Notes under the pieces: model-generated | Seen by the model: the letters and a program-made list of their open reading frames with translations, nothing else | Told to the model about the DNA's origin: nothing | Databases searched by the model: none | Translations under genes and position numbers: made by a program | Origin: an uncultured Candidatus Saccharibacteria bacterium | Lineage (GTDB): Bacteria; Patescibacteriota; Doudnabacteria; UBA920; O2-02-FULL-48-8 | Direction: 5' to 3' | Assembly (NCBI GenBank): GCA_964605735.1 | Contig: CAZSDS010000001.1 | Coordinates: 340,813 to 404,812, forward strand | DNA length: 64,000 nt | Part shown: piece after piece, positions 31,109-46,374 of the stretch | Numbering within the stretch: position 1 is the first letter of the stretch | Layout of the letters: every line of letters begins with the position of its first letter

Positions 31109-32290
31109 TTATTTGTTGATCTTCAATACCACTCCAGCACCTACGGTGTGACCGCCTTCGCGAACTGCGAAGCGCATCTTTTCTTCCAAAGCAACTGGGG
31201 TAATAAGTTTGATGTTCAAGGTAACGGTGTCACCCGGCATGACCATTTCCTGGCCTTCTGGGAGGATAACTTCACCGGTTACGTCAGTGGTTCGGATGTA
31301 GAACTGAGGCTTGTATCCCTTGAAGAAAGGAGTGTGGCGTCCGCCTTCTTCCTTGGTCAAGATATATACTTCAGCTTCAAATTCAGTGTGAGGAGTAACT
31401 GATCCTGGCTTTGCCAAAACCTGTCCGCGTTCAACATCTTCCTTTTTTGTACCACGGAGCAAAATACCTGCGTTGTCACCAGCTTGACCCTTGTCCAACT
31501 GCTTGTTGAACATTTCGATACCAGTCACAACAGTCTTGGTGGTTGGGCGGATACCAACGATTTCGATTTCATCGTTAAGGTTGATAACGCCTCTTTCAAT
31601 ACGGCCGGTAACTACGGTACCGCGGCCTTCAATTGAGAAGATGTCTTCGATAGGCATCAAGAAAGGCTTGTCAGTTTCTCGAACTGGGTCTGGGATGTAA
31701 GTATCAAGAGCTTCAACCAGTTTGGTGATTGATTCTTCGTACTTGGCATCGCCTTCGATAGCCTTCAAAGCGGATCCACGGATAATAGGTGTTTCTTTTC
31801 CTGGGAATCCGTATTTGGTCAAAAGATCGCGGACTTCTTCTTCAACCAAGTCCAAAAGCTCTGGATCTTCAACCATATCGCACTTGTTGAGGTAAACAAC
31901 AATGTATGGAACGCCGACCTGCTTTGCGAGCAAAATGTGTTCGCGGGTCTGAGGCATTGGGCCGTCAGCAGCAGACACAACCAAGATGGAGCCGTCCATT
32001 TGGGCAGCACCGGTGATCATGTTCTTAATGTAGTCAGCGTGACCTGGACAGTCGACGTGAGCGTAGTGGCGCTTGTCAGACTGGTACTCGACGTGAGTGG
32101 TATTGATGGTAATACCACGAGCCTTTTCTTCTGGAGCGTTGTCGATTTGTGCGTAGTCGCGCTCCTGGGCAAAACCCTTCTTAGCCAAAACGTGGGTGAT
32201 GGCGGCAGTCAAAGTGGTCTTACCATGGTCAACGTGACCGATGGTACCGACGTTGACGTGCACTTTGGAACGGTCAAATTTGTCAGCCAT
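31109..32290 (-). CDS. tuf: elongation factor Tu
   Basis: Starts [27 protein letters not shown] (ATG 32288-32290 verified); G1-G5 GTPase motifs. The 13-codon upstream extension in the ORF track is rejected. Confidence 0.97.
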
Positions 32291-32646
32291 TGTATTCCTT
32301 GGGCACGTACAGCTTCTTAGGCTTGTCATTCTGATCTAAGCGAAACCTGCCTATATTGTGGCGGTCTCTCCTGTCTTTGCAGACAGATTTAGCCAAGTTC
32401 AGGATGACTCCAAAACCTTAAAAGCCTCTGTGCGAGTTAATTTATAAGCTTACTAATTATAAGAGAAATCCTTGAATATTGCAAGGATAATTTCTCTTGC
32501 AGTAAAAGCGCCGCTTGTTTCCAAGAAGCCGCTATATAGTAATATTTTCATCCGACATCGTCAACTATAGACCTAAGGCGCGCTCTTTTTTGTTTTGACA
32601 CCAGTCGTTCAACTGGTTTATGCTTCCAGGCATAAGGAGGGTCCTT

Positions 32647-32949
32647 ATGGGAGATTTCGGAACTTTTGTCTTGATGCTTGTGGTGACATCCGGCCTCGGC
32701 TACAGGTCAGTTCAGCTCGATTGTCTAGCTGAACGGGGCCAGCTGGAGAACATCTCACGGGCAAACAAGCTTGCCGGCATGTTCCAAATCTGCATGGTGT
32801 TGACGGTGGCCACAAGCATCAAAATGTGCTACAGCCACATCGCTGACACAGTTCTGATGGCTGTTGCCATGAGCGCTTTGGTGGCTGTCGAAATCTTCTC
32901 CCTGTGGTTCTACGCCATTCGTGGCGTGGTCCTCGACTACGAACCATGA
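32647..32949 (+). CDS. hypothetical small membrane protein (3 predicted TM), opposite strand, between fusA and tuf
   Basis: AAGGAGG at 32634-32640 with 6-nt spacer to ATG 32647; 100 aa hydrophobic product; own terminator at 32962-32994. Confidence 0.55.
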   Translation: MGDFGTFVLMLVVTSGLGYRSVQLDCLAERGQLENISRANKLAGMFQICMVLTVATSIKMCYSHIADTVLMAVAMSALVAVEIFSLWFYAIRGVVLDYEP

Positions 32950-32961
32950 CCCGCTCTCATG

Positions 32962-32994
32962 ACCTGCCCCGTCCCTGGCAGGTCTTTTTTTCTG
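32962..32994 (+). terminator. rho-independent terminator of the 32647 gene
   Basis: gacctgcc-ccgtccct-ggcaggtc followed by TTTTTTTCT. Confidence 0.7.
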
Positions 32995-33020: not shown

Positions 33021-33055
33021 AAAAAAACAAGCCCTTCGCAGGGGCTTGTTTTTAG
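33021..33055. terminator. bidirectional terminator 3' of fusA
   Basis: caagccc-ttcgca-ggggcttg hairpin flanked by A7 and T5. Confidence 0.65.
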
Positions 33056-33056
33056 T

Positions 33057-35180
33057 TTAGCTTACTTGACCGACGCGCTGTTTGCCTGCGCCTTCAATGA
33101 TCTTTTCAGCAACATTTCTTGGGACTTCTTCGTAGTGGTCGAATTCCATGGTGTATGAGGCCTGACCCTGGGACATGGATCGGATCTGTGTTGCGTATCC
33201 GAACATTTCAGCCAACGGCACTTCCGCATCCACAACCTTCAGGTTGCCGCGGTCAGTCATTTCGTTGATTTTGCCGCGCTTTGCATTCAAGTCACCAATC
33301 ACATCACCTAAAGATGACTCAGGAGTCAAAACTTCAACTTTCATGATCGGTTCAAGCAATACTGGAGTTGCTTTTCTCACGCCTTCCTGGAAAGCCTGTG
33401 ATCCGGCAATTTTGAATGCGATTTCAGATGAGTCAACTTCGTGGTATGAGCCGTCTGTCAAAGTCACTTTTGCGTCAATCAACGGATATCCGGCAATAAC
33501 GCCTCGTTCTGTTGCTTCCTTGATACCCTTTTCAACGGCCGGGATATATTCTCGAGGAATGACACCGCCAACGATTTCGTTAACGAATTCAAAACCTTTG
33601 CCAGCTTCATTAGGTTCAACAGTGATGACAACGTGTCCGTATTGTCCGCGCCCACCGGTCTGTCTGATGTATTTGTGTTCTGCTTCAGCTTTGCCTTTGA
33701 TGGTTTCGCGGTAAGCAACCTGCGGTCTGCCGACATTCGCTTCAACTTTAAACTCGCGCTTCATGCGGTCAACCAGAATTTCCAAATGCAATTCACCCAT
33801 GCCGGAAATCAATGTCTGGTTAACTTCTTCGTCAGTCTTAACTTTGAAGGTTGGGTCTTCTTCAGCCAGTTTTTGCAAAGCAATGCCCATTTTTTCCTGG
33901 TCTGCCTTGGTCTTAGGCTCAATAGCTACGGAAATGACCGGCTCTGGGAATTTAATGGCTTCCAGCTGGATTGGGCTGTCCACTGCACAAAGCGTATCGC
34001 CAGTGAAAGTTTCCTTTGGCCCTACCAATGCAGCAATATCTCCGGCATACACTACTTTAACGTCTTCACGTTTGTCAGCATGCATTCGGACAATGCGCCC
34101 TACGCGCTCTTTGTTGCCGCTTCTTGTGTTCAAAACGTATGAACCTGCTTCCAGTTTGCCGCTGTAAACGCGGAAGAAAGCAAGTTTACCCACGAATGGG
34201 TCAGTCGCAATTTTAAATGCCAACGCAGTAAGAGGCTCTGAGTCAGATGGCTTTCTAACAATGGCTTCTCCGGTCTTTGGGTTGGTGCCTTTGATGTCGC
34301 CGCGGTCAACCGGACTTGGCAGGAAGTTGGTCACTCCGTCAAGCAGGGTTTGTACAATAATACCGCGTCCGTCTCCGCCGAATACCGGGAAGAAAGTGCC
34401 GGATTGGGTTGATTTTCTGATTGCGGACAAAAACTCCTGCTCAGTCAATTCTTCCCCACCGAGATACTTTTCCATCAAGGCGTCATCCGATTCAACAACT
34501 TTCTCCATCAGCCTCTGGCGGTATTCTTTTGCCTTCTCAAGCATGTCAGCCGGGATTTCCCCCACTGTAAAGTCGCGGTCAGAAAATTCCTTGTAGGTGT
34601 AAGCCTTCATGGAAACCAGGTCAACCACGCCGCAAATATCCTTTTCAAATCCAATTGGCAATTGCACAGGATAGGCGTTTGGTGACAATCGCTTGTGGAT
34701 TGCATCCAGGGACTTATAAAAGTCGCCGCCGGTTTGGTTGATTTTGTTGACGAAGCACATACGAGGCACGCCGTACTTGTCAGCCTGGCGCCACACGGTT
34801 TCGGACTGAGGTTCAACGCCCATCTTGCCGTCAAAAACCACAATAGCACCATCAAGCACGCGCAAAGAACGCTCCACTTCCACAGTGAAGTCTACGTGTC
34901 CAGGCGTATCGATAATGTTGATCTTGTGCTTAACGTCGCCTCCAAGCTTAATGTACTTGGGGATCCAGAAACAGGTAACAGCTGCCGCAGTAATGGTAAT
35001 GCCGCGTTCGCGTTCCTGTTCCATCCAGTCAGTGGTGGTTGCGCCCTCGTGTACCGCGCCAATCTTATGAGTCAGCCCGGTGTTGTATAGAATACCTTCG
35101 GTAGTTGTGGTTTTACCTGCGTCAATGTGCGCGATAATCCCGATGTTACGCGTGGATTCTATTGGATATTCTCTAGCCAT
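33057..35180 (-). CDS. fusA: elongation factor G
   Basis: 707 aa; [10 protein letters not shown]1 motif, domains II-V of EF-G. Confidence 0.97.
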
Positions 35181-35251
35181 AAATTAGGTTAATAACTTGA
35201 TTTTTTAAATGATTTGATATATATTGGTTCGATTGATAAAAGGAGGTGTGA

Positions 35252-35497
35252 GTGAAACGGATCTCATCGGTTCTGGCTGTTGTCGGGCTGGTTCTTACCC
35301 TGGTTTGGGTCCTGAATGACCCAATGGATGAAGAAACTGCCCTGTTCCGGTCCGGAGCATCAACTGAAGAAGTTCTGGCCGCACGGGAGACTTACGTCCC
35401 GCCGGAACGACCGACTTGGATGCTGATCGCCGGAATCGCTTTGATGATTCCGCTCGGCTTCTCGTTTCTGCGCCGGCAACTCGATCACCGGCGCTGA
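35252..35497 (+). CDS. hypothetical small membrane protein (2 TM), opposite strand, in rpsG-fusA spacer
   Basis: AGGAGG 35241-35246, GTG start 35252; 81 aa with two hydrophobic helices; terminator 35510-35540. Confidence 0.5.
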   Translation: MKRISSVLAVVGLVLTLVWVLNDPMDEETALFRSGASTEEVLAARETYVPPERPTWMLIAGIALMIPLGFSFLRRQLDHRR

Positions 35498-35509
35498 AAA
35501 ACCGATCTT

Positions 35510-35540
35510 GGGTGTGCAACTTTGCACACCCATTTTTTTA
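35510..35540 (+). terminator. rho-independent terminator of the 35252 gene
   Basis: gggtgtgc-aacttt-gcacaccc followed by ATTTTTTTA. Confidence 0.7.
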
Positions 35541-36023
35541 TCGTCTCTGGAATCTTGCGAAGTGAGCGAATGCCTTGTTGGCTTCAGCCATCTTGTGCAC
35601 GTCTTCTCGCTTCTTAATAGCCGCTCCAAGCTTGTTGTATGCTTCCATCAATTCTTCGCCGAGCTTTTCAGCCATTGGCTTGCCCTTTTTGCTTCGGGCA
35701 GCAACAATAATCCATTTCATACCCAAAGAAGTTTTTCTTGGTTCCATAACTTCCATAGGGACCTGATAGTTGGCGCCACCGATTCGGCGGCCCTTAACTT
35801 CCAATATTGGGGAAACGTTTTTGATTGCCTGTTCGAAAACCGCTTTTGGGTCAGTCTTCATTTTTTCTTCAATAAAATCCAAAGCTCCGTAAACAATCCT
35901 CTGGGCGGTTGATTTCTTTCCGCGTTCCATAATGTAGTTTATGAACTTGGAAATCTTTACGGAATTGTACTTTATGTCTGGGTTAACCGGATGTTTCTTG
36001 TATGCTCTTGCTTTTCTTGGCAT
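35538..36023 (-). CDS. rpsG: 30S ribosomal protein S7
   Basis: 161 aa S7 family. Confidence 0.95.
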
Positions 36024-36027
36024 TGCT

Positions 36028-36441
36028 TTATGCTTTCTTTACTCCGTACTTACTTCGGCTGCGCTTTCGACCTTCTACGCCGGCGGCATCAAGTTTGCCA
36101 CGAACAATGTGATAGCGGACACCTGGCAAGTCTTTTACACGACCGCCGCGGATCATGACTACGCTGTGTTCCTGCAGGTTGTGGCCAATGCCTGGGATGT
36201 ATGCCAGAACTTCCATGCCGTTTGTCAAACGGACACGGGCAACTTTTCTGATAGCTGAGTTTGGCTTCTTAGGGGTAACTGTATAAACACGAACACAGAC
36301 ACCGCGCTTGAACGGAGTGCCTTTGTCAAAAGTGAACGGACGGTTCTTAAGCAGGTTCAAACCGCGCTGGAGAGCAGGGCTCTTTGAGCGGGAAGTCTGT
36401 TTTGTTCGTCCTTTTCGAACTAATTGGTTAACTGTAGGCAT
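36028..36441 (-). CDS. rpsL: 30S ribosomal protein S12
   Basis: 137 aa S12 family ([12 protein letters not shown]...). Confidence 0.95.
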
Positions 36442-36775
36442 TTATAATGGACCTTAAAATTACTGAATAATGGTTTACGAATATCTTTGAAGTGCGACCA
36501 GAACAAATTTTAGGCAAACAAAAACGGCATCTGCCTTGCCGCAACTCGAACACAAGGAGAAATCAGCCTCTAGATTGTTTACCGTTACTGGCTTAAATTA
36601 ACAGGTTTTTCAGGTTTTGTCAAATGTTCGGGCGCAAGACTGGGCACAAAGCGCCAGCATTGACAAAATGGCCAAAATATGCCATTATTGTGTGTTACGA
36701 GAATAAATAAGGAACGCGGTCGGACACCTTCGTTTGCTTGTCTAGCGCTCTGTACTGGGACTACAGGAGGAATGA

Positions 36776-46287: not shown

Positions 46288-46374
46288 TGGTGCCGCTGGA
46301 CGGAGTCGAACCGTCATGAGCGTAAGCCCACACGATTTTGAGTCGTGCGTGTCTGCCAGTTCCACCACAGCGGC
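46288..46374 (-). tRNA. tRNA-Leu (anticodon CAA), 87 nt with encoded CCA
   Basis: Minus-strand sequence GCCGCTG...CAGCGGCACCA folds as a cloverleaf: 7-bp acceptor stem, anticodon loop CTCAAAA, long variable arm, T-arm GGTTCGACTCC. Confidence 0.9.

Follow-up and report, generated by a model that had tools for sequence, protein, structure and literature searches.

A predicted small membrane-protein gene facing the str cluster at the rpsG-fusA junction of a Saccharibacteria genome

In the ribosomal super-cluster of an uncultured Saccharibacteria genome, a gene for a small, predicted two-pass membrane protein is located between rpsG and fusA, on the strand opposite to both. We analysed a 64-kb stretch of contig CAZSDS010000001.1 (hereafter the window, meaning this whole stretch), in which the open reading frame (ORF) runs on the plus strand from a GTG at 35252 to a stop at 35497 and encodes 81 amino acids (aa). 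Because its frame is conserved at the syntenic position and carries a coding signature in relatives, the ORF is, judged by sequence comparison, a real gene. It belongs to a family of small unannotated proteins that is found in several other genomic contexts, and the junction in which it lies is expanded in most of the Saccharibacteria sampled. The probable explanation, in our view, is an independent, insulated and lineage-specific envelope protein gene that sits at a permissive junction.

Anatomy and conservation of the small gene

The start and stop codons, the two predicted transmembrane (TM) helices, the Shine-Dalgarno (SD) sequence and the terminator of the gene were all found where a preliminary description of this DNA had placed them. 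The SD, AGGAGG (35241-35246, plus strand), ends 5 nucleotides (nt) before the GTG, and a promoter-like site on the same strand, TTGATT-17-TATATT (35197-35225), agrees with the consensus at 9 of 12 positions. The divergent region between fusA and the small gene measures 71 bp, has a GC content of 24% and is common to both genes. An intrinsic terminator on the plus strand begins 11 nt past the stop codon and has the stable GC-rich stem-loop with adjacent U7 that is expected of a signal acting on this strand: a hairpin with a 10-bp stem (35509-35532; -18 kcal/mol, z = -4.2) runs directly into T7 (35533-35539). This T run extends into the TAA that ends rpsG on the opposite strand (35538-35540). 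Within the window the small gene is present in one copy only, and its GC content is 57% (60% at third codon positions), compared with 46% for the window and 44-50% for the neighbouring genes. A window-specific inverted repeat, GCGCCGG-N11-CCGGCGC (35469-35493), falls within the final codons of the gene; the relatives L081 and L089 described below do not have it, and both are without the C-terminal extension.

Among shuffled 357-bp sequences, 5.7-7.5% contain a complete ORF of 81 codons or more, and the length by itself is not significant evidence for a gene. The preliminary description had proposed conservation of the frame at the syntenic locus as a check, and the ORF passed it: the same gene is found in the same position, orientation and frame between fusA and rpsG in two divergent relatives, a 698-bp forest-soil metagenomic contig (L081) and a 569-bp metagenomic contig (L089). 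The arrangement is thus syntenic in three lineages. Both contigs show, in this order, the opposite-strand fusA N-terminus, TTGATT followed after 17 nt by a -10-like hexamer (aligned as TAAAAT in L081 and CAGTAT in L089), an SD, an ATG, the ORF, a hairpin with T7 and the rpsG C-terminus. The SD, as AGGAGG or GGAGG, stands 5-7 nt ahead of the aligned GTG or ATG in the window, L081 and L089. The hairpin and its U7 are likewise kept in L081 (16 bp, -25.1 kcal/mol) and L089 (9 bp), with the T run again overlapping the rpsG stop. In L089, a plus-strand ORF predicted by gene callers (1-147) is spurious; it runs antisense to the start of the fusA coding sequence. The same artefact may account for the "same-strand upstream gene" of P0002, a family member on a 657-bp contig from ENA, so that P0002 may also be located at the rpsG-fusA junction.

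The codon comparison of the window, L081 and L089 gives the coding signature. In a core of 24 codons the proportion of synonymous differences (pS) is 0.84-0.90 and that of nonsynonymous differences (pN) 0.08-0.13, with 7, 4 and 17 of the 24 codons varying at codon positions 1, 2 and 3, respectively. The rpsG fragments of the window and L081 are 91% identical at the protein level, with a pS of 0.72, showing that the two lineages are well separated. Their pN is 0.079, and that of the small-gene core is as low. Over the whole small gene, pN is 0.33-0.37 and pS 0.68-0.77; outside the core the protein evolves faster (pN 0.41-0.52). Synonymous sites are saturated across the gene and no nucleotide-level element is conserved within it. 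Constraint, as read from these codon patterns, acts on the protein in the plus frame and not on an RNA or DNA element.

The protein family and its genomic contexts

The 81-aa protein comprises TM1 (approximately residues 4-22), an acidic loop (residues 23-46, DPMDEETALFRSGASTEEVLAARE), a Pro-rich linker, TM2 (approximately 55-72) and a basic tail, RRQLDHRR; an example of a peptide derived from the loop is SGASTEEVLAAR. Kyte-Doolittle hydrophobicity peaks near residues 4-22 and 54-72. An AlphaFold2 (AF2) model built from a 12-sequence alignment reached a predicted local distance difference test (pLDDT) score of 79 and placed helices at residues 2-21, 27-33, 38-46 and 55-80. Since the net charges of the N-terminus, the loop and the C-terminus are +2, -5 and +3, the positive-inside rule predicts that both ends are cytoplasmic and that the loop lies on the outer side of the cell membrane.

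Homologues are few. A word-indexed search yielded two relatives besides the identical protein, and a profile search gave 12 proteins. When 1.84 billion cluster representatives were scanned exhaustively with HMMER, 13 matched, about 10 of them true small proteins. The resulting family is tiny and unannotated, with about 20 sequences. Its members all have 64-88 aa and consist of a short basic N-terminus, a hydrophobic helix, an acidic motif, a Pro-rich linker, a second hydrophobic helix and a basic tail. The motif reads (Y/N)DPMDEETA(L/K)(F/A)R.GA(P/S)TEE(V/I)LAARE, with a six-residue insertion in some members, and the alignment identifies D23, D26, E28, T29, R33, A36, L42, R45 and R74 as invariant. 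The window protein, which served as the profile query, has all of these family features and matches the family profile with E = 8e-37. Scans of the protein and the family against Pfam, NCBIfam, PADLOC and PHROGs returned sub-threshold, helix-driven matches only (G0/G1 switch 2, DUF3185, LPXTG anchor, Trp_oprn_chp). Neither a sequence profile search of the PDB (best E = 0.35) nor a Foldseek comparison of the AF2 model with the PDB (best E = 0.95, a designed TM hairpin) gave a significant match, and a scan of viral contigs found no copies of the gene.

Most family members are encoded at loci other than the str cluster. In the PYGWLWKPAL subfamily (P0005, P0006, P0007, P0009 and P0012), the small gene overlaps or trails, by 0-8 nt, a gene of 243-255 aa, whose product combines a signal peptide with an AAGC lipobox (…LLAVFAAGCGKK) and matches no Pfam family. 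In five members the array consists of mnmA, an 85-aa gene, the lipoprotein gene, the small gene and ppa, all on the same strand. Contigs with the lipoprotein gene, the small gene and ppa are L083-L087 and L091-L094 (for instance L086, 4270-5240), and a metagenome scan added one further locus only, L091, which is of this lipoprotein-ppa type. P0010 is encoded behind a YceG/MltG-like gene and has its own promoter-like TTGACA-17-TATCAT, P0011 is found in yet another context, and L088 and L090 also hold contexts outside the str cluster. Judging from these contexts, the family is not bound to the str genes, and the lipoprotein is a possible partner of the small protein. The preliminary description had suggested a lineage-specific small membrane protein coupled to the expression of translation factors: the family and its conservation bear out the first part, and the location of most members outside the str cluster speaks against the second.

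Searches with tblastn and the family hidden Markov model against six-frame translations of 80 GTDB fusA loci revealed no member or remnant near fusA outside the clade of the window. This absence, together with the shared promoter and terminator, points to a single insertion and to a derived position of the gene in this clade. The 255-aa lipoprotein, mnmA, ppa and the other neighbours in L086 have no matches in the window, so that a relocation from the lipoprotein array cannot be demonstrated.

The str cluster and its expanded junctions

The surrounding region is a minus-strand ribosomal super-cluster of Saccharibacteria (TM7, Patescibacteria), with a packed S10 cluster after tuf; the closest species representatives are uncultured Saccharibacteria with 77-79% identity in elongation factor G (EF-G). 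On the minus strand, rpsL (S12, 36028-36441) is located 4 bp upstream of rpsG (ribosomal protein S7, 35538-36023), which is convergent with the small gene. Both assignments come from the ORF list and tblastn synteny; PF00177 is recorded for the identical rpsG in L082. The fusA gene (EF-G, 33057-35180, minus strand) is divergent from the small gene and has no visible SD upstream. For tuf (EF-Tu, 31109-32290, minus strand) the listed ORF reaches 32329, and the MADKF start at 32290 has an AAGGA SD; a consensus scan found promoter-like sites upstream of it at 32564-32536 and 32484-32456 (minus strand). The rpsG-fusA spacer (35181-35537, 357 bp) holds the small gene, and a further plus-strand ORF (32647-32949) lies in the 766 bp between fusA and tuf. 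An Rfam scan of the whole window found only a tRNA at 46291-46374 and no RNA family in the rpsG-fusA spacer.

A hairpin with a T run on the minus strand (36512-36542) is located in the leader region of rpsL; it has no Rfam match and is possibly an attenuator or leader structure. L082, a 1500-bp Logan contig from SRR26389779, is identical to the window and spans rpsL, rpsG, the spacer and fusA. Should SRR26389779 be a metatranscriptome, this contig would be direct evidence for read-through.

We surveyed the junctions in the 80 GTDB fusA loci (L001-L080). The median rpsG-fusA spacer is 493 bp in Saccharibacteria, 105.5 bp in other members of the candidate phyla radiation (CPR) and 46.5 bp in other bacteria. 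Spacers of at least 150 bp were found in 9 of 13 Saccharibacteria (range 6-2716 bp), as against 3 of 40 other bacteria. The fusA-tuf spacers show a similar picture, with medians of 570, 619 and 86 bp in the three groups. Expanded or interrupted rpsG-fusA and fusA-tuf junctions are therefore the norm in Saccharibacteria and other CPR bacteria.

The inserts themselves differ. Same-strand inserts are a GreA-like gene in L004 and an amylase-like gene in L015, and more distant Saccharibacteria carry multi-gene blocks of 2-2.7 kb in mixed orientation. The three genomes nearest to the window each have a spacer ORF with a strong SD on the strand opposite to the str genes, in all three cases the minus strand of the locus: 43 aa with one membrane helix in L001 (3638-3766), 65 aa with two membrane helices and a hairpin terminator in L002 (3499-3696), and 89 aa, soluble and without a predicted membrane helix, in L003 (1731-2000). 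As exact sequences they are absent from the protein collection, and they are candidate genes only. No homology was detected among these three ORFs, the 81-aa ORF of the window and the 100-aa ORF of its fusA-tuf spacer. The spacers of L001, L002 and L003 are dissimilar to each other and to that of the window, even though EF-G of L001 and L002 is 86% identical; this lack of similarity between the nearest genomes marks the rpsG-fusA junction as a site of fast turnover.

The signals around fusA divide the cluster. Directly after the fusA stop an A-tract, a hairpin and a T-tract (33023-33053) form a canonical terminator (-16.5 kcal/mol, U7 on the minus strand), which would also act as a stop on the plus strand. 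The preliminary description had started from rpsL-rpsG-fusA-tuf as a single transcription unit; this fails between fusA and tuf because of this terminator, and the 766-bp spacer there carries the second plus-strand ORF in addition. The signal implies that tuf would be transcribed separately from fusA. The second ORF (32647-32949, plus strand) is a candidate gene for a hydrophobic protein of 100 aa and has an AAGGAGG SD, a promoter-like TTGACA-18-TATGCT (32595-32624, plus strand) and a terminator consisting of a hairpin and T7 (32961-32991, plus strand). A homologue search identified it as an orphan, with only a strain copy at an identity of at least 90%. Two plus-strand stops (32961-32991 and 33023-33053) shield fusA from its transcription.

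The signals for transcription of fusA itself give a mixed picture. A comparison of 17 Saccharibacteria fusA upstream regions revealed no shared motif, and fusA is without an SD in all relatives examined. A perfect TATAAT is located 14 nt upstream of the fusA ATG in L081 and 12 nt upstream in L003. These boxes close to the start codon, together with the universal lack of an SD, suggest fusA promoters with short leaders. Furthermore, some genomes have multi-kb inserts at the junction, so that fusA expression need not rely on transcripts reading straight through from rpsG.

Explanations and comparison with known systems

According to the explanation that we favour, the small gene would be transcribed from its own sigma-70-like promoter and translated from its strong SD, and its terminator would end the transcript at the 3' end of rpsG. 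The protein would insert as a helical hairpin, with the acidic loop facing the outside; this loop measures about 25 residues, which the model folds into two short helices. Strong selection acts on the loop and not on the helices, and the loop would thus probably bind a partner in the envelope. The most likely role is that of a small subunit of the envelope or of a membrane complex, since the gene of another subfamily is packed tightly behind the 255-aa lipoprotein gene. The locus would have arisen by one ancestral insertion in reverse orientation, in one sub-clade of Saccharibacteria, at a permissive junction with fast turnover. In L081, G.U pairs of the terminator hairpin turn into A.C mismatches on the minus strand and leave a weaker, interrupted stem there. 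The small-gene terminator looks tuned to the plus strand, and its sequence suggests insulation rather than an engineered overlap. It would protect rpsG from antisense transcription, and the arrangement would not be a device for the control of fusA or tuf. The preliminary description had read the insert as implying, among other possibilities, transcriptional interference or antisense regulation of fusA and tuf expression; such regulation is unsupported in view of the common junction expansion, the unrelated ORFs in the nearest genomes and the terminator tuned to the plus strand.

Several observations weigh against this explanation. Read on the minus strand, the hairpin behind rpsG is without an adjoining U tract in the window, L081 and L089 alike, and thus lacks what a terminator for rpsG would need: the first U run follows 9-11 nt past the stem in the window and L081, and none follows in L089. 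The sequences after the hairpin on this strand are AAGAUCGGUUUUU (window), ACAAGUCAGCUUUUU (L081) and GAAAACUACUUCUU (L089), none of which is a canonical terminator. No consensus promoter for fusA was found between rpsG and fusA; a permissive scan gave sites with 8-9 of 12 matches only. Expression of fusA may thus require transcripts that read through the small gene in antisense, with possible regulatory consequences. In addition, all four of the nearest lineages (the clade of the window, L001, L002 and L003) carry opposite-strand inserts, which hints at a preference for this orientation; such a preference would not be an obvious expectation for a neutral hotspot. The explanation also does not account for the high GC content of the small gene, which could come from amino-acid composition or from a GC-richer donor. 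Finally, the envelope function is derived from the topology and from a neighbour gene of a different subfamily, and the window holds no homologue of the lipoprotein. The weights that we give to the individual readings do not add up to one, the rest being left for explanations not listed here.

The most serious rival makes the overlap functional. Read-through from rpsL-rpsG would cross the hairpin and run to fusA antisense to the small gene, and collision of polymerases or an RNA duplex would couple the membrane protein with EF-G, and perhaps S7, in the manner of an excludon. The missing minus-strand terminator and fusA promoter would fit such coupling, as would the lack of an SD before fusA and the recurrence of the opposite orientation with non-homologous ORFs. 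Against it stand the family contexts, which are mostly same-strand arrays outside the str cluster, and the same-strand or multi-gene inserts of 2-2.7 kb in distant Saccharibacteria, which indicate that fusA can be expressed independently. The TATAAT boxes of L081 and L003 and the saturated synonymous sites, with no nucleotide-level element conserved inside the small gene, also speak against coupling, and the canonical fusA terminator removes its fusA-tuf premise. We regard this reading as unlikely. If the convergent genes did regulate each other, antisense transcription would link a membrane protein to a housekeeping operon of translation genes, which would be unusual; the evidence does not favour this.

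A broader version, to which we give still less credence, sees the junction in this branch as a selected site for convergent small membrane-protein genes. Synthesis of envelope proteins would be coupled inversely to the output of ribosomes and EF-G through an excludon-like switch of interchangeable genes. The candidates would be the 81-aa family, the 43-aa ORF of L001 and the 65-aa ORF of L002, across which unterminated, growth-rate-controlled transcription of the str genes could run antisense.

Another doubtful reading, of about the same low standing, concerns the protein. Here an N-terminal signal peptide would be cleaved and a C-terminal anchor of the sortase or exosortase type would leave an acidic peptide of about 35 residues exposed or attached to the wall. 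The C-terminus has sub-threshold matches to LPXTG_anchor (TIGR01167; 5 of 12 members, best E = 0.036), NPXTG and Gram_pos_anchor, the Pro-rich motif with the following hydrophobic stretch and basic tail resembles sorting signals, and one subfamily has a P-x-(N/S)-P-Y-G-W motif before the last helix. Yet the family alignment contains no conserved LPXTG-like motif, the best score of 13 bits is below the curated cut-off of 15.9 bits for assignment to TIGR01167 or PF00746, no signal-peptidase site of the A-x-A type follows helix 1, and AF2 packs both segments together as long helices.

We hold it very improbable that the gene is a type I toxin-like or selfish element, silenced by antisense transcription from the str genes and serving as an addiction or stress module. 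The protein is small and hydrophobic, with a strong SD and an intergenic position potentially under an abundant antisense transcript; the distribution of the family is narrow and patchy, at varied genomic positions; the GC content exceeds that of the surroundings; and other small hydrophobic ORFs occupy the same spot in neighbouring lineages. Typical type I toxins have fewer than 60 aa, one helix, little conserved polar sequence and a dedicated antisense RNA, whereas this protein has 81 aa, two helices and a strongly conserved polar loop and thus falls outside that type. Its single copy in the window, the same-strand array behind the lipoprotein gene in other lineages and the lack of matches in PADLOC, PHROGs and viral contigs likewise argue against a toxin. 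A chance ORF in a long non-coding spacer, with conservation stemming from a str-cluster element that acts as RNA or DNA, would agree with the frequency of such lengths (6-7% of shuffled spacers) and with the lack of an Rfam or Pfam assignment, but is effectively excluded by the core codon test (pS near 0.9, pN near 0.1, variation mainly at third positions), the conserved start codon and SD and the homologues of the same architecture in unrelated contexts.

The small proteome of Saccharibacteria and other CPR bacteria is largely without annotation, and the protein adds to it an unannotated family of about 80 residues whose conserved loop is predicted to point outward. Small proteins of the envelope could plausibly have a part in the epibiotic life of these bacteria. 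The conserved str operon of the textbooks is routinely interrupted in this phylum, and a single transcription unit should not be assumed there. A literature search found nothing relevant on antisense arrangements at rpsG-fusA, on small membrane proteins or transcriptomes of Saccharibacteria or on str gene order in Patescibacteria.

Compared with the classical str operon (rpsL-rpsG-fusA-tufA in E. coli), the window shares the one-strand order rpsL, rpsG, fusA and tuf, followed by the S10 cluster. Its spacers of 357 and 766 bp, however, contrast with medians of 46.5 and 86 bp in the sampled non-CPR genomes, both spacers contain an ORF on the opposite strand, equipped with an SD and a terminator, and a canonical terminator follows fusA. 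As in the shared or bidirectional intrinsic terminators of convergent genes, one hairpin is located exactly between the two genes of the window and its T run overlaps the opposing stop codon; the U tract adjoins the stem on the plus-strand side only, so that this terminator looks unidirectional. Excludons, other antisense overlaps and type I toxin-antitoxin loci likewise pair an opposite-strand gene for a small hydrophobic protein with a long transcript from its neighbours, which may cover it. Here the overlapping transcript is hypothetical, and the protein is larger, with two helices, a conserved polar loop and same-strand arrays elsewhere.

At the protein level, the second loop helix and the Pro-rich turn (EEVLAARE..PP..P) resemble the consensus of the TPR_10 repeats in CHAT-TPR proteins (..EEVLAARER.LPPDHPDLL). 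Three CHAT-TPR proteins of about 1,250 aa (P0017, P0019 and P0021) match profile positions 24-65 with E = 5e-7 to 1.5e-4, summed over 4-5 repeats. Each matching stretch covers only about 20-40 residues and the small proteins themselves do not match TPR models; this resemblance most likely reflects convergence of a short helix motif and not homology. With DUF3185, a family of uncharacterised small two-pass membrane proteins, the window protein has in common a length below 100 aa, a helical hairpin and basic termini, but its score of 11.8 bits (E = 0.24) is far under the gathering threshold of 25.3 bits. Small bacterial membrane proteins of the AcrZ, KdpF and MgtS class serve as accessory subunits, and the window protein shares with them a size below 100 aa, a short gene and a strong SD; its own partner is a candidate only. 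The conserved acidic loop of 24 residues, the defining feature of the family, is found neither in DUF3185 nor in this class. New here is thus an unannotated small membrane protein of a familiar kind, lodged as an opposite-strand insert in a conserved cluster.

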